This document shows positions 23,130 to 47,171 of a DNA stretch of 64,000 bases, in pieces; positions within the stretch are counted from its first letter, which is position 1, and each line of letters begins with the position of its first letter. A model generated the notes under the pieces. That model did not search any database, was not told the origin of the DNA, and was given only the letters and a program-made list of their open reading frames with translations. Made by a program: the position numbers and the translations under genes. This DNA is from Escherichia coli (GTDB lineage: Bacteria > Pseudomonadota > Gammaproteobacteria > Enterobacterales > Enterobacteriaceae). Location of the stretch: NCBI RefSeq assembly GCF_003018115.1, contig NZ_CP027457.1. The stretch is one strand, 5' to 3'.

Positions 23130-23971
23130 CTATACTGCCAGCATGTCAGGATAGTGTTTTGCGATAATATCATTCAGTCTGTCAACCAGTTCTGGTTTTC
23201 TGAACGTGATATGCGCGGAGCCCTTCTTAAAGTATCTGATGCTGAACATCTCATCTTCATAGTCCTCTTTTCCCTGAACAGATTGGATATGGTCATCCAG
23301 ATGAATGGTGATGTTTTCCCGGTTGTCGGGGATCGGTTTGCCGCTGAACAGGTGCAGCATTCTTTCCAGATCGGCAAGTCGATCGGCCTGTTGCCCGGTG
23401 ATAAGATGCCCCCCCACCGGTCCCACCTCACCAGATTGTTGACGATAATTTTACTGCCAAATTTGCAGGGTGAATTGGTTTTGTAATTCCAGCTCAGTCC
23501 CCTGAAAACGTTGATCACCCCTCGCTCAAACACTTCATCTTTGTTCTGGTGCAGTTGTTCAAACGTGCTCAGGATATTCGCTTCGCTGATTTCCGGAAAA
23601 TTATCGTACTCCAGTGACCGGTACCATGTATCACGGGCTTGTGCATCCATTAATGACAGCATCCCTGAACGTTGCATCAGGTCACGCCAGATTTCGCGGT
23701 CAAGGTTGTGGGTGATGGCTTTCATTGCGGTTTCCGGTTTCTCCATGAGCCAGCAGCCACAGCGAAAATCCTGTTTCATGGCCCAGTCCAGTGCGGTTTT
23801 ACCTCCGATGCTTTCCGCCAGCACCGAGATTTCTGCCAGTTGCCGGATAAGCGTGTCGATTTGCAGCAGTGTACTTTTTCGTACAGCCAGAATGTGGCGG
23901 ATACTGGTTGAGCAGATAACGTCCGTATGCCCGTTGACAACTTCCAGACGAGAGGCTGTGATATCAGACAT
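23130..23971 (-). pseudogene. DUF4942-type protein, frameshifted in a C7/G7 tract
   Basis: ORFs 23174..23971 and 23130..23426 are consecutive parts of one protein (...LVRWDRWG | GHLITGQQADRLADLE...); junction at the C7 run 23409-23415. Confidence 0.75.
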
Positions 23972-23981
23972 AATCGATTAT

Positions 23982-25403
23982 ATGAACGCATCCCGTTTGC
24001 AAAGGCATCCATTGTTCTGACATCGACGGTAGGTTGCAGCTTTATATCCGGCTTTATTGCAGCCCGGAAGCTGCGAGCCCCTATGTAATTCGCCGACTCA
24101 CGCCTCATTTCCTCAGCGGGCTTTAGGCCCAATCGATTATCCAGGTTTAGTGAGTCACGGTCTTACCTGTCTTTGTCATCACGCTGGCTGCCAGAGCAAC
24201 CTTTCTGCATTCACCCTTTTGTAAAGAGTTTATGTTTATCGGTATCAGCGATTAATCAGGCCTGATACTGACATGATTTTTGTCGTATTTACGTCCGTGA
24301 GCGGCTATTGCCCACACCGTTCGCGCCAGCTTGTTTGCCATTGCGACGATTGCCACGCTGGCCGGACGACGCTTTTTCAGTTCGGTTATCCATGGACCAG
24401 GTTCTTTGGTCAGTAATGCTGCCGCCCTTGCACCATGAATAAACAGGGTTCGCAGATATTTATCACCACGTTTGCTTATTCCCAGCAGGCGGATTTTTCC
24501 TCCTGAGCCTGTCTGTCTGGGCACCAGACCGATAAACGCGGCGAATTCCCGTCCCGACTTAAAGGCGGAGGCGTCTCCCATCGTGGCAACGGCAGCGGTG
24601 GCGATTAACGGCCCCACGCCTGGGATGTTCAGTAACCGCTGACAGGTTTCATTCTGTCTGGCTACCGCCTGCAACTGCTTCTCAATGTGGTCAAGATGTT
24701 CATCAAGTTCAGTAATTCGCTGATATTGTTCATCCAGCATGTTTATCAGGTAGAGCGGTAGCCGCTCCTTCAGACGCTCCAGGGCTTCCGGCACCTCCTT
24801 CGCCAAAGCAGCACGCCCCTTGTGCGTCGTTTCACCAAATTCCAGCAAGAGACCGTGAAGCGCGTTTATTTGTGCTGTCCTGAACTTCACCAGTTGCTGG
24901 CGCATTCGGTGTAACCCCAGCGTAGCCTGTTGCTCCTCGCTTTTAACGGCGACGGATTTTACCGGCTGCTGAACCGCCAGCCAGATGGCTCGGGCGTCCA
25001 TCACATCGTTTTTATTTCCCATCACGAATGCTTTGACGAACCGGCCTTTGAGTAATCTGACCTTATGTCCCAGTTTCTGAAGCTCACGCGCCCAGTGATG
25101 AGAACCCCCACAGGCCTCCATGCCGATAAGGCAGGGTTCACGGTTGCTGAAATATTCAAGGAATTTCTCACGCTTAACCTGCTTATCGATAATCTCTCCG
25201 GTATGTTCATCAACGAAATGCACCTGCATAAGATGTTTTGCAATATCAACCCCGACAGGGATATATTTCATGGTGTGGATCCTCCAGTCTGTTGGGAGCG
25301 AAACGCATCCCGTTGGGCACGATGATGCCGGAAATCTGCGGGGATCCACACTCATCTACTTAATCCCCGAGCGGCTCATTTCATAATGTTGGGATGCGTT
25401 CAT
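23982..25403 (-). mobile_element. IS110-family (IS1111-like) insertion sequence, approximate ends
   Basis: 13-bp inverted repeat atgaacgcatccc (23982-23994) / gggatgcgttcat (25391-25403) brackets a DEDD-type transposase gene; about 1.42 kb. Confidence 0.7.
24252..25271 (-). CDS. IS110-family transposase/recombinase
   Basis: MKYIPVGVDIAKHLMQVHF... start at 25271 gives 339 aa; MEACGGSHHWARELQKLGH and LLNIPGVGPLIATAA motifs typical of IS110/IS1111 transposases. Confidence 0.88.
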   Translation of the reverse strand: MKYIPVGVDIAKHLMQVHFVDEHTGEIIDKQVKREKFLEYFSNREPCLIGMEACGGSHHWARELQKLGHKVRLLKGRFVKAFVMGNKNDVMDARAIWLAVQQPVKSVAVKSEEQQATLGLHRMRQQLVKFRTAQINALHGLLLEFGETTHKGRAALAKEVPEALERLKERLPLYLINMLDEQYQRITELDEHLDHIEKQLQAVARQNETCQRLLNIPGVGPLIATAAVATMGDASAFKSGREFAAFIGLVPRQTGSGGKIRLLGISKRGDKYLRTLFIHGARAAALLTKEPGPWITELKKRRPASVAIVAMANKLARTVWAIAAHGRKYDKNHVSIRPD

Positions 25404-37221: not shown

Positions 37222-37384
37222 ACATGTATTCCCGGTGAAAAAAGACAAAACCCCGCGCACCGGAAAGATGGCGGGGGATTCACGGAGATAATATCTGTCT
37301 GAAATTATTTGAAATGCAGGTATATGCAGCTAATTTGTATCAGCTTATTGGTACAGTACTAAACCTCATCTGACAGTCCGCTCT

Positions 37385-37399
37385 GTGCCAGGAGCGGAC
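37385..37399 (+). repeat. left copy of 15-nt direct repeat gtgccaggagcggac
   Basis: Identical 15-mer at 38896-38910; this copy forms the 3' arm of hairpin gtccgctc-tgtgccag-gagcggac (37376-37399). Confidence 0.6.
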
Positions 37400-37502
37400 A
37401 TTCCGATATTGAAAAGTAAATTGTCTTGCTGTATTTTTTCAGTCATAAAAATGAATAAGGATTCTCAGATGAGTGAGATATTTGAACTATTCAGTTCTAC
37501 TG

Positions 37503-38219
37503 TCAGTCCTTAAGTTTATTCATAGAAAGCCGCTCTTGGCGTTTAAGCTCATTTAAAGTGAAAAAAGCACATTTATTAGATAAAATATAAATAGTTCCTA
37601 CTAACCGATGTAAGCGCCTCATTTTTTCGGGCATAGAGAATTCAGCATTTTTGACAAACATTAAAGAATCAACCCCAGCAGAGAACATATATTGTAAACT
37701 TTCCATATTAAAAGCCTCTAGTGGATTTACTTCGTTAATATCAATACTATTAACAGACCTCTCTATTTCGAGGTAATCTTCACTTGTCATTGAATAGTCT
37801 ATTTTATGAGCGAATTTATTGCGGATAGAATTCAGCTTAACTAAAGAATTTGCAATTGAGAGAGGTAAACCTAAAGCAACACAGATCTCCAGTTTTGGAG
37901 TAAAATATCGTGATGGTTTAACGAACTGCTCAGTACCAGGCTTCCTAACATTGTTGATGAATACTTCCAAGAAATTCTCAATCAATAGGCTAAGTCTTAG
38001 CAAGACTGATGCTTCGTCATTTATACTTAGTAAAGGTGCAAATTTTTCTGCGTCAAGAAAGAAACCGAGGTCATTATTAATCGCTACATATCCAGTTAGA
38101 TTGTTATTTGACTTCATATTCATAAAAACCTTATCTTGTATATTAGCGGCATATTGTACCATAAATTGAATCGTGGTTTGTTCTAAGAATGGACACAAGA
38201 ACTTCCTCTCCTCACTCAT
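37503..38219 (-). CDS. hypothetical protein with HEPN-type R-x4-H motif
   Basis: ORF 37503..38228 (TTG); ATG at 38219 gives 238 aa; motif IRNKFAH encoded at 37806-37823; AT-rich; no close family recognised. Confidence 0.6.
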   Translation of the reverse strand: MSEERKFLCPFLEQTTIQFMVQYAANIQDKVFMNMKSNNNLTGYVAINNDLGFFLDAEKFAPLLSINDEASVLLRLSLLIENFLEVFINNVRKPGTEQFVKPSRYFTPKLEICVALGLPLSIANSLVKLNSIRNKFAHKIDYSMTSEDYLEIERSVNSIDINEVNPLEAFNMESLQYMFSAGVDSLMFVKNAEFSMPEKMRRLHRLVGTIYILSNKCAFFTLNELKRQERLSMNKLKD

Positions 38220-38230
38220 AAGAGACAACC

Positions 38231-38267
38231 ATACTCAAATCTCCCACATTGCAGGAGATTTGAGTAT
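38231..38267. promoter_or_regulatory. perfect 14-bp inverted repeat between divergent starts
   Basis: atactcaaatctcc (38231-38244) / ggagatttgagtat (38254-38267) with 9-nt loop; the right arm contains the ggag SD and the first two nt of the recombinase ATG. Confidence 0.6.
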
Positions 38268-38868
38268 GAACACGTCACCGTGGAACAAAGACCGTATCAT
38301 CGCCCAAAAAAGACCACTTCAGATATCTCATATCTGGGAGATCCGAATCCGGCTTGAACTGGAAGGTAAAACGCGCGATTTAGCTCTGTTCAATATGGCC
38401 CAGGACAGTAAGCTTCGAGGCTGTGATCTGGTCAAACTCAAAGTATCGAATGTGGCATATGGTAGCTCGGTTTCAAGCAGAGAAACGGTGTTGCAACAAA
38501 AAACCGGTAACCTTGTGCAATTCGAGATAACCAAAGGGACAAGAGAAGCTGTTGCTGCATTGATAAAGCTTGGCAATTTGCACAGTAAAGACTTCTTGTT
38601 TCGGTCTCGGGTCGGAACTAATCGGCACATATCAACCCAGCAATACAGCCGAATTTTTCATGGGTGGGTAGAAAAGCTTGGTCTCGAAGCTTCGCTGTAC
38701 AGCACACAATCCATGAGAAGAACAAAACCTTACCTAATCTACAAGAAAACCAAGAATCTCCGGATCATCCAACTTCTGTTGGGTCATAAGAAACTGGAAA
38801 GCACGATCCGTTATCTGGGCATTGAAGTCGATGATGCGTTAGAGACCTCTGAATCGATTGAAGTCTAA
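38266..38868 (+). CDS. short (200-aa) tyrosine recombinase, FimB/FimE-sized
   Basis: ATG 38266 preceded by aggag; catalytic signature ...SKLRGCDL..., ...QSMRRTKP..., LLGHKKLESTIRYLG (R...R...H...Y); no long N-terminal arm-binding domain. Confidence 0.8.
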   Translation: MNTSPWNKDRIIAQKRPLQISHIWEIRIRLELEGKTRDLALFNMAQDSKLRGCDLVKLKVSNVAYGSSVSSRETVLQQKTGNLVQFEITKGTREAVAALIKLGNLHSKDFLFRSRVGTNRHISTQQYSRIFHGWVEKLGLEASLYSTQSMRRTKPYLIYKKTKNLRIIQLLLGHKKLESTIRYLGIEVDDALETSESIEV

Positions 38869-38895
38869 GGTTGTCAGAGCTGCAATAGCAGCCCC

Positions 38896-38910
38896 GTGCC
38901 AGGAGCGGAC
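38896..38910 (+). repeat. right copy of 15-nt direct repeat gtgccaggagcggac
   Basis: 28 nt after the recombinase stop; identical to 37385-37399. Confidence 0.6.
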
Positions 38911-39026
38911 CTAACTAAGTTCATACAACATTGATTATTGAAGATTAGGTCAGAAATAAATACTTTATTTTGATAATTTAGTTACGTTAGAACACCGCAA
39001 TGTACAACGTAAAAATGAGGAATAAT

Positions 39027-40388
39027 ATGACTCGGAGTGAAATAAACGTCTGGGATGAGAGAAGAGGTACCAATAGTCATCGAGTGGAGGAGATTCGATC
39101 TGAAGCTCAGCACGACCTTTCTCGATTGATTCACTCGTCTGCTTTCAGACGATTACAATCCAAAACACAGGTTCTTGGTCTGGGTGAAAGTGATTTCTAC
39201 CGCACACGACTGACTCATTCTATGGAAGTCGCACAAATCGGTTCAGGTCTTCTTGCTAAGTTGAAAATAAAATATAAAGGTAAAGAGCAAGAGCAATTTT
39301 TACCAGATAACGCTCTTATGCAGGCAGTATGTCTCGCACATGATATTGGACATCCTCCATTTGGTCACGGCGGTGAGGTAGCTCTTAACTACTGTATGCA
39401 GGATTACGGTGGTTTTGAAGGAAACGGTCAGACGCTTCGCATTCTCTCGAAACTAGATAAGTATACCTTAGAACACGGACTCGATCCTACACGCAGACTT
39501 CTGCTAGGCATACTGAAATATCCGGTTAAATACTCGGAGCTAGTGGTTACAAAAGACAGAATCCCGGTCACTATCGGATCACCAAACTGGCTCTTTAAGT
39601 CATCTGATTTTAAACCTCCAAAATGCTATCTAGATTCAGAATGCGATGTTGTAAAATTTGCTCTCTCACCATTTACTGAACAGGATCGGAGGCTTTTTAC
39701 TTCCGTTGAAGATGGTCAAACTAAATCCGATCATAAAAAAGCTTCTTATAAAGCTCTCGATACAACTATAATGGATCTTGCCGATGAAATTTCGTATTCG
39801 CTGCACGATTTGGAGGATGCTATTTCTCTCGGAATGGTGACACGAGAAATGTGGATGGAGCATTTCAGTGAACATGAAACCCTATTTACTAACTGCCATG
39901 GAAAAATATTTTCCGAAACATGCCAATCTGTAGCGGATAGCCTTTTTGGTGAAAGTTACAAGAGAAAAGAGTGCATCGGGATGCTGGTTCACCTGATGAT
40001 TACAAGCGTTGAGCTTATTACAAAGAATCCAGCATTCGAATGTGGCATGCTCAAATATAATGCGGTCCTTCCGGAAGCGGTCGAAGCACTACGGTTGAAA
40101 ATTTTCAAACTGGTCAAAAATAAAGTAATTAAGCATGAAAATGTACAGCAGCTTGAATTCAAGGGACAAAAGTTGATTGTTGAGCTCTTCGGTGTGTTGG
40201 CGAACGATCCGTGTCGGTTTCTACCTGCCTCAACGAGGGAAATTTACGAGCGGCAGACTAGCTTAGACAAGAAGGCTGGTATGCGAGTCATTTGCGACTA
40301 TGTTTCAGGGATGACTGATGACTATGCAACAAAGCTTTATGAGAAGATCCTTATTCCACGCAAAGGGTCTATTTTTGACCATCTCTAA
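39027..40388 (+). CDS. dGTPase-family HD-domain dNTP triphosphohydrolase
   Basis: ORF 39000..40388; ATG 39027 follows aggaa; motifs IHSSAFRRLQSKTQV, YRTRLTHSMEVAQIG, HDIGHPPFGHGGE, DLADEISYSLHDLEDA. Confidence 0.85.
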   Translation: MTRSEINVWDERRGTNSHRVEEIRSEAQHDLSRLIHSSAFRRLQSKTQVLGLGESDFYRTRLTHSMEVAQIGSGLLAKLKIKYKGKEQEQFLPDNALMQAVCLAHDIGHPPFGHGGEVALNYCMQDYGGFEGNGQTLRILSKLDKYTLEHGLDPTRRLLLGILKYPVKYSELVVTKDRIPVTIGSPNWLFKSSDFKPPKCYLDSECDVVKFALSPFTEQDRRLFTSVEDGQTKSDHKKASYKALDTTIMDLADEISYSLHDLEDAISLGMVTREMWMEHFSEHETLFTNCHGKIFSETCQSVADSLFGESYKRKECIGMLVHLMITSVELITKNPAFECGMLKYNAVLPEAVEALRLKIFKLVKNKVIKHENVQQLEFKGQKLIVELFGVLANDPCRFLPASTREIYERQTSLDKKAGMRVICDYVSGMTDDYATKLYEKILIPRKGSIFDHL

Positions 40389-41372
40389 CACGGTAAGAAT
40401 GATACTCTGAGTTCAATTGACCTATAAACATTAACCAAGGCATCTACCAGGGGGGATATCAAATCCCCCCATTCTGAATTTGTTCATGCAGAATCGGTGA
40501 ACGTTCTCATCTGAGCGTTAAACGCCAATAATCATTGATCTACACTGATCATTAATACACCTTAATACCATTAGCGTCTTACTCCGTTATGAGAACAAAC
40601 GCGAACTTCCGCTGTTCGCTCAAAGCAGACCATTCGCTCAGTTAACGCATCAGTGTCGTGCTAGAAGTAGAAGTGGTTAACAACAATGTGAGTTAATCAA
40701 CGGAGAGCAGGTCAACTCTAACCTGTATCAAAAAACAAATGTGTCATAAAGATGCCGCATGCCTTAATTTGAGTATAATTGAGACGGAAGTAGACGGTTT
40801 ATGACTAGATATTGTTGATATATAGCTATTTGAAGAGTTGTAGCGCAAGCGCATAGCCCAAACTAATAACGCTACGCCCCTTATCAAAGAGCGGCAACGA
40901 TGCACAGCTCGCACGAGACAATATTCGCACAAGAAATCAGGTTCGGAAATAACCAGCTCTGGCATGGCGGGGAGAGTATCAATGGTCAGGCTTTCGGTAA
41001 GATGCGGCGGGATGAGGTCGGCGTGGGTTACAGCAGTACAAGGTCGCCCACAGAGGGTAAGCCACAGCGTGGAATCCTCGGTTTCTATCAGGGATTCGGC
41101 GAAGCGGGCGCAGTTGTCGACCAAGACGATGAAATCCATTGTGGCATTATAAGGGAACGAACAATAGATCGAGTAAATCGCAGTCAGGGACAAGGATTGT
41201 AGTCATAGAGAAGTCTCCTGTAACGGTTTTCAGGAGGCTAATCCCGACGCCTGATTTCGCAGGCGCGGAAAGAGAGGATACTGCGACCATTAATCCGCCA
41301 CAAGTCATTTACGTACATAAATCGCGCAGTCAGATCCGACTCCCACTGTAGTTCTTGAACTTGATACCACAT

Positions 41373-45456: not shown

Positions 45457-46107
45457 ATGACTACAGCGCCAGCCTCAATCCGCAAAAAGCCCTGATCTGG
45501 CGTATCGTCCATCGGGACAATATCCCGTGGATTCTGGACAATGGTCTGCACTGCGGCAACAGCCCGGTGCAGGCTGCTAACTGGATCAATATCGGCAACC
45601 CGGAGCTTATCGGCAAGCACGCCGGACATCCGGTACCTGTCGGGACGGGCGGGACACTGCGTGACTATGTGCCATTTTATTTTACCCCCTTCTCGCCAAT
45701 GCTGATGAACATCCACAGCGGACGTGGCGGCATTAAGCAACGCCCCAATGAAGAGATCGTTATTCTGGTCAGCAGCCTGCGGCACGTGGCAGCACACGAC
45801 GTGCCCTTCGTGTTTACCGACAGCCATGCTTACTATAACTGGACCAACTACTACACCAGTCTGGATAGTCTGGACCAGATCGACTGGCCCATTTTGCAGG
45901 CACGGGACTTTCGCCGCGATCCAGACGATCCGGCTAAATTTGAACGCTATCAGGCAGAGGCGCTAATCTGGCAACACTGCCCGATCTCGCTGCTGGATGG
46001 GATAATTTGTTACAGCGAAGAGGTCAGGTTACAATTAGAACAATGGTTGTTTCAGCGTAATCTAACAATGTCCGTTCACACACGGGCTGGATTGGTACTT
46101 CTCATGA
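45457..46107 (+). pseudogene. darT: DarT ssDNA ADP-ribosyltransferase toxin, out of frame at both ends
   Basis: ATG 45457 (frame 1) stops after 12 codons; body in frame 0 ([19 protein letters not shown]...[16 protein letters not shown]...[11 protein letters not shown]...RYQAEALIW...) aligns with recalled Thermus DarT; native-looking end ..DWYFS* (TGA 46105-46107) is back in frame 1. Confidence 0.8.
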
Positions 46108-47171
46108 TCACATATACACAAGGCAATTTACTGGACGCACCGGTGGAAGCTCTGGTGAATACGGTTAATACCGTCGGTGTCATGGGGAAAGGCATCGCGT
46201 TGATGTTTAAAGAGCGCTTCCACGAAAATATGAAAGCCTATGCCCTCGCCTGCAAACAAAAGCAGGTGATCACCGGCAAAATGTTCATTACCGAAACCGG
46301 GGAACTGATGGGACCGCGCTGGATTGTTAATTTTCCGACCAAACAGCACTGGCGCGCTGACTCCCGCATGGGGTGGATTGAAGATGGCTTACAAGACTTA
46401 CGTCGATTTTTGATTGAAGAGAACGTGCAATCCATCGCCATTCCACCGCTGGGCGCAGGCAACGGTGACTTGAACTGGCCGGACGTTCGGGCGCAGATTG
46501 AATCTGCCCTTGGCGACCTTCAGGACGTTGATATCCTGATTTACCAACCAACTGAAAAATACCAGAACGTTGCCAAAAGCACTGGCGTAAAAAAGCTCAC
46601 TCCCGCCAGAGCCGCCATCGCTGAACTGGTGCGTCGCTACTGGGTATTGGGGATGGAGTGCAGCCTACTGGAAATCCAGAAACTGGCCTGGCTGTTACAA
46701 CGCGCCCTTAAGCAGCATCAACAGGACGATATCCTCAAACTGCGGTTTGAAGCTCACTATTATGGCCCCTATGCGCCCAATCTGAACCATCTGCTTAATG
46801 CGCTGGACGGCACCTATCTTAAAGCCGAGAAACGCATCCCGGACAGCCAACCGCTGGATGTGATCTGGTTTAACGATCAGAAAAAAGAACACGTTAATGC
46901 GTATCTGAACAGCGAAGCCAGAGAGTGGCTACCGGCGCTGGAGCAGGTCAGCCAGTTAATTGACGGCTTTGAATCGCCGTTTGGTCTGGAGCTGCTGGCA
47001 ACCGTAGACTGGTTGCTGAGCCGTGGCGAATGTCAACCAACACTGGATTCCGTTAAGGAAGGGCTGCACCAGTGGCCTGCGGGCGAACACTGGGCCAGCC
47101 GTAAGTTGAGGCTGTTTGATAATAATAATCTGCAATTTGCCATTAACCGCGTAATGGAGTTCCATTGCTGA
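46104..47171 (+). CDS. darG: DarG macrodomain antitoxin
   Basis: 355 aa [39 protein letters not shown]...[12 protein letters not shown]...[14 protein letters not shown], closely parallel to recalled Thermus DarG; ATG overlaps the darT TGA (ATGA). Confidence 0.9.

Follow-up and report, generated by a model that had tools for sequence, protein, structure and literature searches.

HepS ('HEPN Solo', STM14_3211), encoded by the Gifsy-1 prophage of Salmonella Typhimurium 14028, is the closest described counterpart of the gene considered here, a hepS-like gene on the minus strand of a 64,000-nucleotide stretch of Escherichia coli DNA (contig NZ_CP027457.1, assembly GCF_003018115.1; the whole stretch is hereafter called the window). 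HepS is a constitutively expressed, one-protein abortive-infection system that is non-toxic when over-expressed alone, and structures are available of the apo protein (PDB 9OIJ) and of the H105A variant with a phage lambda J peptide (PDB 9OIK) (Sargen et al., Nature 2026; PMC13043305). In its latent tetramer the residues R100 and H105 are buried and misaligned, and the trigger is a segment of the nascent siphovirus tail-tip protein J (residues 902-933, with F924 as the key residue) that binds the N- and C-termini of each protomer, these being unstructured until trigger binding; in the crystal structure J is held mostly by backbone beta-sheet pairing (PMC13043305). Binding of J moves Y20 and I107, whereupon two composite active sites open and the activated enzyme cuts tRNA anticodon loops, tRNA-Thr(GGT) most strongly, followed by other tRNA-Thr, tRNA-Ile(GAT) as well as tRNA-Ser(GCT) (PMC13043305). 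Both R100 and H105 are needed for defence and for RNA cleavage, and function is lost in the variants H105A, R100A, Y20A, I107A, F66A, K78A and L83A, Y20F being active (PMC13043305). The same paper lists 393 homologues, and it describes homologues at 35-50% identity spread over Enterobacteriaceae, Yersiniaceae, Erwiniaceae and Pectobacteriaceae, often in prophages and without a conserved partner (PMC13043305).

Judged by its sequence, the product of the hepS-like gene (37503..38123, minus strand) is a divergent E. coli member of the HepS family, and its mechanism is thus largely known by homology. When the profile of its clade was run against PDB sequences with hmmsearch it matched HepS (9OIJ/9OIK; E=4.8e-61 for 9oij_A), covering positions 10-205 of 208, while the single sequence reached E=7.3e-46 with phmmer and BLASTP aligned 196 amino acids (aa) at 39% identity and 65% positives with one gap. 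This identity lies inside the 35-50% band termed 'closely related' in the HepS paper (PMC13043305). The AlphaFold2 model (predicted local distance difference test score, pLDDT, 83; predicted template modelling score, pTM, 0.81) is all-helical, as had been predicted in an earlier note written from the letters of this DNA; it holds a helical HEPN core fold with the Rx4H motif in place, the structural check which that note had proposed, and compares with HepS at template modelling (TM) scores of 0.86/0.95. Its pLDDT drops below 50 at the termini (1-16 and 203-206), as would be expected of segments that fold only upon trigger binding. The earlier note had also described the protein as an orphan, a label that falls with its match to phrog_5712 (E=4e-46) and to the solved HepS structure; on the other hand, the full-length homology and the predicted fold both support its suggestion of a single-gene abortive-infection HEPN RNase. 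The families that it had proposed (AbiU2/DUF4145, Abi2, Swt1-like and MAE_28990-like) are not among the Pfam matches at E<=0.1, and PADLOC gave no match. Searched exhaustively with the profile, 1.84 billion cluster representatives yielded 269 clusters at E<=1e-3, and since only 4 of these fell below 1e-30 the close family is small. With this gene, a defence family of which a single member has been characterised gains a divergent clade in E. coli.

The catalytic centre and the activation relay of HepS are largely retained. Throughout, residues are numbered on the 206-aa product that we favour below (RefSeq numbering is +32). The motif R101-N-K-F-A-H106, encoded at 37806..37823 on the minus strand, aligns to HepS R100-H105 and is invariant in 16/16 aligned sequences, 15 homologous clusters having been found among 5.8 billion proteins. 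By our estimate an Rx4H occurs by chance in roughly a quarter of proteins of similar size, so that the motif alone would be weak evidence; the gene itself is well supported by its homologues, by its substitution pattern and by the structure model. Also conserved are N102 (HepS N101, a tRNA contact), the relay residues G20 and I108 (G19 and I107) and the tetramer-interface residues F67 and L84 (F66 and L83). At two further positions the changes are mild: the relay residue Y20 is replaced by F21, the very substitution that leaves HepS active (PMC13043305), and the tRNA contact K71 is conservatively replaced by R72. N101 and K71, the counterparts of N102 and R72, are the HepS residues modelled to contact the anticodon. 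The window protein thus resembles HepS in size (~206-212 aa, a stand-alone protein of one domain and below 250 aa), in its single HEPN domain without a partner gene, in its R-N-K-(F/Y)-A-H motif, in its disordered termini and in having close relatives borne by temperate phages.

RefSeq lists the gene as a 'hypothetical protein' of 238 aa (WP_001288265.1). The open reading frame (ORF) runs on the minus strand from 38228/38219 to 37503, its translation contains LVKLNSIRNKFAHKIDY, and the earlier note was right both on the ORF and on the RNKFAH motif encoded at 37823-37806. Its length estimate of 238 or 241 aa follows from a frame that indeed reaches 38219/38228, but as a protein length it is probably too long; the true product is probably the 206 aa that begin at ATG 38123 and end at the TGA at 37505-37503. 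In the longer versions the catalytic pair R101/H106 is R133/H138 (RefSeq, 238 aa) or R136/H141 (from TTG 38228). All 13 of 13 homologues from other contexts (203-213 aa) start at the Met equivalent to ATG 38123, and the homology to HepS is full-length. DNA homology to the two closest relatives (loci L009 and L010; 85-87% identity) covers only 38174 to 37376, and both relatives have an in-frame TGA 18 codons 5' of the ATG, the longer frame of the window having been opened by a 1-nt indel. From 38199 onward, ~24 bp past the end of this homology, the DNA belongs to a separate conserved block that carries a recombinase. The RefSeq N-terminal extension (38124..38219, minus strand) is absent from every homologue outside E. 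coli and its frame is not conserved; it is probably 5' untranslated region and promoter rather than coding, the RefSeq start appearing to be over-extended by 32 codons. Inside it, a candidate extended -10 promoter, TGgTACAAT (38153..38161, minus strand), was read from the alignment: the two closest relatives have TGGTATAAT at the same position, giving a conserved TGgTA(C/T)AAT pattern. A Shine-Dalgarno-like AAGG (38129..38132, minus strand) stands 5 nt 5' of the ATG and is matched by GAGG or GGAG at equal spacing in the relatives. The start codon of WP_001288265.1 is corrected by these comparisons. The protein collection also holds a 231-aa call of the hepS-like protein (P0001, a cluster of 81 member sequences).

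The gene appears to be under selection. Against L009 and L010 its ratio of non-synonymous to synonymous substitution rates (dN/dS) is 0.15-0.17, which indicates purifying selection, and the ORF is intact and 99.8-100% identical across all five E. coli carriers. The window itself is 100% identical to the E. coli strains 1303 and 2014C-4135. The hepS-like stretch has ~34% G+C compared with 50-60% for the island on its left, and in every context the gene lies below its flanks in G+C (0.32-0.42 versus 0.44-0.54).

Relatives at 60-72% identity are carried by temperate phages, prophages or viral contigs, with the gene present on three IMG/VR viral contigs. They take up two positions: at the end of lambdoid prophages beside the integrase (L002-L004, L011, L012), and, in phages whose structural genes are of podovirus type, between the small terminase and the replication genes (L005-L008, L013-L015). 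Across eight contexts (the window, L002, L005, L009-L011, L013 and L014) the neighbours vary, and no partner gene is conserved. A 112-aa phrog_536 'transcriptional regulator' does lie ~31 nt upstream of the hepS-like gene in L002 (9631-9969), L005 (9631-9969) and L014 (7629-7967), in lambdoid as well as podovirus-like phage contexts and with 80% identity between L002 and L005; it is, however, absent from the window and was not called beside L009-L011, and is thus not an obligate partner. A protein-pattern scan of one genome per species found no relative, and a plasmid search found distant ones only, at 29-36% identity. Two plasmids of 2,203 bp, NZ_AP022156.1 (Klebsiella quasipneumoniae) and NZ_CP147122.1 (E. 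coli), encode a HepS-family protein with 34% identity to the window protein over 92% of its length, and would carry such a defence gene as essentially their sole cargo. Unlike HepS in Gifsy-1, the window gene does not have a prophage setting: it sits as a cassette in a tRNA-Ser island, between a YeeP-like GTPase gene and a small recombinase gene of 200 codons, with no phage structural genes.

We consider it likely, by analogy with HepS, that the window protein is a solo HEPN RNase of this family acting as a latent, phage-triggered, one-protein abortive-infection anticodon nuclease, its tetramer, latency, tRNA target and defence phenotype all being carried over by homology. It would most likely be produced constitutively from its own promoter and rest in the cell as an inactive homotetramer in which the R101/H106 pairs of facing protomers are misaligned. 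When infection is at a late stage, a phage protein would attach to each protomer at its flexible N- and C-terminal segments; acting by way of the G20/F21-I108 relay, this would reposition H106 and open two composite HEPN active sites. The enzyme would then cut a few tRNAs in their anticodon loops (for HepS these are tRNA-Thr, Ile and Ser), and with translation halted no infectious particles would be assembled. We assign this mechanism without naming a trigger because the four HepS residues that hydrogen-bond to J are not conserved. The predicted strategy is shared with PrrC and RloC: both are latent tRNA anticodon-loop nucleases that a phage product frees to bring about abortive infection. PrrC and RloC are large ATPase-fused proteins that are silenced by a type I restriction-modification (R-M) enzyme or by DNA-damage sensing; no relationship in sequence to the window protein was detected, no search having been aimed at it.

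A number of results weigh against this assignment. PADLOC (2023) and NCBIfam hold no model that matches the protein, and Pfam yielded sub-threshold HEPN matches only (HEPN_RiboL-PSP at 20 bits, with a cut-off of 28.4). A tblastn search of 50,697 phage records found no relative, the gene is present in 5 of 5,426 complete E. coli genomes, and a two-hexamer promoter scan made no call at 38153-38161, where the proposed promoter is a reading by consensus. At the level of residues, the HepS positions S13, D15, S202 and T203, which form hydrogen bonds to the trigger, are A14, N16, K203 and L204 in the window protein; K78, an interface residue that HepS needs for its tetramer, is E79 here and in 13/14 clade members; and conservation within the clade is lowest at the termini (residues 1-11 and 199-206), where it averages 0.45 and 0.50 compared with 0.66-0.84 for internal segments.

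Several of these differences bear on the first alternative to be considered, namely that the protein is a latent HEPN RNase of the HepS type whose trigger is not siphovirus J but another phage protein, or whose substrates are other tRNAs or mRNA. To this we assign a possible but lesser place. It would account for the loss of the J-bonding side chains and for the variability of the termini, and it agrees with the identity to HepS of just 39% and with the fact that several of the carrier phages are podovirus-like by their Pfam matches (Bbp16, GP7, Head-tail_con). It sits less well with the conserved relay (G20, F21, I108) and RNA contacts (N102, R72), and a trigger held by backbone beta-sheet pairing, as J is (PMC13043305), tolerates side-chain changes. 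With its core and relay conserved, and its trigger-contact residues and one tetramer residue changed, the clade offers a natural test of HepS sensor diversification and of whether a siphovirus tail tip is what these sensors read in every case.

A poorer prospect, and in our view an improbable one, is a silent or decaying passenger gene, its ORF intact and the product unexpressed or non-functional, left behind by cassette shuffling. Its rarity among E. coli genomes, the frameshift in the adjacent darT, the change of K78 to E at the tetramer interface and the recombinase block abutting the upstream region ~24 bp past the end of cassette homology could all be read in this way. However, decay is hard to reconcile with near-identical intact ORFs in five genomes and with the dN/dS values given above, the extended -10 and Shine-Dalgarno sequences are kept, the catalytic residues are all intact, and an E79 shared by nearly the whole clade is a clade trait and not a sign of decay.

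It is very unlikely that the protein is the toxin of a toxin-antitoxin pair, of the HEPN-MNT kind or similar, with a small unannotated antitoxin. HEPN-MNT toxins (SO_3166, PDB 5YEP; the Aphanizomenon HEPN, PDB 7AE2) measure ~130-140 aa, and a neighbouring MNT nucleotidyltransferase neutralises them, whereas the window protein has 206 aa and extra helices and is predicted to be latent alone. As the earlier note had said, there is no MNT neighbour: of the ten neighbouring ORFs scanned with Pfam none matched a nucleotidyltransferase family, and neither an MNT nor another candidate lies within the cassette, ~850 bp between its bounding sites. The 112-aa phage gene is missing from the window and was not called beside the relatives in L009, L010 and L011, and HepS is harmless when over-expressed by itself (PMC13043305). 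The R101/H106 pair is present, and we give next to no credence to a non-catalytic HEPN-fold regulator akin to MtlR/YggD.

At the DNA level the hepS-like gene forms, with its promoter and a terminal palindrome, a ~0.8-kb single-gene cassette that fills a variable slot in the tRNA-Ser island. Compared with strain CFT073, homology of the left flank extends to 37399 and resumes at 38199, the interval being occupied by the hepS-like gene (~800 bp) in the window and by an unrelated 366-aa gene in CFT073. The 366-aa neighbours in L010 and HKUOPY1 were suspected to be an identical gene, and comparison showed them to be unrelated. The 3' boundary of the cassette is a perfect 24-bp palindrome, GTCCGCTC-TGTGCCAG-GAGCGGAC (37376..37399), which we call the 'A' site; cassette homology to L009/L010 ends at 37376 and flank homology to CFT073 at 37399, so that their overlap is exactly the A site. 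The 5' boundary is a degenerate 'B'-type site, GTCTCTTA-TGAGTGAG-GAGAGGAA (38203..38226, minus strand), which also forms the recombinase block's left end; the consensus of the B type, taken from other E. coli genomes, is GTCCCTTA-TGAGCGAG-GAGCGGAA. An A half-site (38887..38910, plus strand) forms both the right end of that block and the left end of a second cassette, which carries a dGTPase gene, and its portion at 38896-38910, GTGCCAGGAGCGGAC, repeats 37385-37399 exactly over 15 bp and in direct orientation. The dGTPase cassette is closed by a B site, GTCTGCTT-TGAGCGAA-CAGCGGAA (40607..40630, minus strand).

In strain RM9513 a stretch of a Rac-like prophage matches window positions 38896-40607 at 97% identity; no recombinase is nearby there, and the homology ends at 40607. 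The window's backbone (GTPase, A site ... B site, helix-turn-helix gene, hsdM) recurs in strain TW14588 with two other genes in the slot, and TW14588 shares with the window the B site at 40607-40630 plus ~40 nt beyond. A scan of the whole window, which accepted sites within 7 mismatches of the two consensus types, found only four, all within 37376-40630: A(+) at 37376, B(-) at 38203, the A(+) half-site at 38887 and B(-) at 40607. They alternate between A and B and each lies at a gene boundary, and block shuffles of the window give 0-2 sites. Palindromes also coincide with homology break-points in L009, L010, L016-L020 and L023-L099. Among one-genome-per-species representatives the exact 24-mer occurs at 75 loci, ~0.02 being expected by chance on our own estimate; these are mostly in Enterobacterales, together with some metagenome-assembled genomes (MAGs) of Alphaproteobacteria that have a third spacer type, TGGGTCAA. 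In many Enterobacterales and some of these MAGs the sites form arrays every 0.5-3 kb, often as B(-)/A(+) doublets ~40 bp apart. Rfam had nothing at the palindromes, and full-text literature searches for the site sequence and related concepts returned nothing relevant.

The coincidence of break-points with these sites is observed; a role for the adjacent recombinase in moving the cassettes we infer. This 200-aa tyrosine recombinase (WP_001399565.1; 38266..38868, plus strand), located exactly at the cassette junction, consists of a catalytic domain only (Pfam Phage_integrase, 1.9e-14; phrog_216), and on a by-eye reading of its translation the catalytic R, K, R, H and Y appear to be present, with Q at the His-II position. 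We regard as tentative the proposal that the hepS-like gene and the dGTPase gene are cargo of an undescribed cassette system that the recombinase shuffles between CP4-like islands and Rac-like prophages. In such a system single defence genes may be bracketed by two inverted 24-bp core-type sites, each laid out as an arm GTCCGCTC, an 8-bp spacer (TGTGCCAG at one end and TGAGCGAG inverted at the other) and an arm GAGCGGAC, and may work like an integron or a dif-module system. If palindrome-bounded cassettes are indeed moved by the small recombinase, the hopping of single-gene defences between E. coli prophages and islands would have an explanation, and the A and B sites would offer a sequence signature for mining defence genes that are as yet unknown.

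The population data do not favour the simplest form of this proposal. An empty junction, in which the left flank and A site are joined to the dGTPase flank, was found at 0 places at >=80% coverage among E. coli genomes, so that simple insertion or excision of a unit made of hepS and the recombinase is unsupported. The sites are shaped like a lox or dif core (arm, 8-bp spacer, arm), but they may instead of recombination sites be intergenic palindromes resembling repetitive extragenic palindromic (REP) elements, at which exchanges accumulate. This second reading is kept in play by the occurrence of the exact 24-mer between ordinary genes in the MAGs of Alphaproteobacteria, and by the presence of the recombinase within 8 kb at only 2 of the 75 loci. 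The cargo of the arrays includes ordinary accessory genes, on a by-eye reading of ORF translations; that of the cassettes in the window is defence genes.

Of known cassette systems, the arrangement most resembles integron attC cassettes and Acinetobacter pdif modules, with which it shares small, mostly single-gene units, short imperfect palindromes, exchange between unrelated contexts and a nearby tyrosine recombinase. An integron is recognised by an IntI-type integrase, attI, a Pc promoter and attC-bounded promoterless cassettes, and the window architecture departs from this set: its recombinase has 200 aa, reaches a marginal 14.6 bits against the integron-integrase model NF011946 (cut-off 435) and is absent from many arrays, and its cassettes have their own promoters and lie in either orientation. 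The sites differ as well. Whereas attC sites measure 57-141 bp and dif sites 28 bp, those of the window are 24-bp arm-spacer-arm palindromes with two spacer types at opposite cassette ends.

The recombinase block is itself widespread. Its span of 38199-38910 is found at 90-93% identity in roughly 900-1,090 of the 5,426 E. coli genomes (~17-20%), the count varying with the query; both CP4-like islands and Rac/Qin-like prophage remnants carry it. We considered whether the gene could be a truncated integrase and rejected this, the 603-bp gene being annotated as complete and the ~710-bp block recurring in so many genomes. The genes on both sides of the block differ in every locus inspected and several are of nuclease or defence type, the neighbours including a restriction endonuclease with an HNH endonuclease, DUF4145, a CBS-domain protein, ETEC_3214, dGTPase and hepS-like genes. 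A 19-bp inverted repeat (38229..38269), invariant in six E. coli loci, covers the Shine-Dalgarno-like GGAG and the ATG of the recombinase; the inverted-repeat scan permits G-T pairs, and the arms of this repeat read as exact complements. It might sequester the translation start from read-through transcripts, as occurs in some insertion sequence (IS) elements.

The neighbours named in the earlier note were all recovered: beside the 200-aa recombinase lie an anti-phage dGTPase gene and a type I R-M operon that includes darG and a frameshifted darT. The dGTPase gene (39000..40388, plus strand; RefSeq start 39027) matches NCBIfam NF041026 at 3e-168 and is called as dGTPase by PADLOC. Within the operon hsdM-hsdS-darT-darG-hsdR, darT (~45492-47171) is annotated as frameshifted, and the ORF list has a 534-aa ORF (45567-47171) that continues to the end of darG. 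A tRNA-Ser gene beside infA (~23969-24056) forms the start of the island, an end at which no full-length integrase is annotated, and from there the island extends to at least 64000. A CP4-44-like module (DUF4942 ... CbtA/YeeU ... Cah autotransporter ... GTPase) has its distal end toward the tRNA gene, and past the R-M/DarTG operon the island runs into polymorphic-toxin and CdiA genes.

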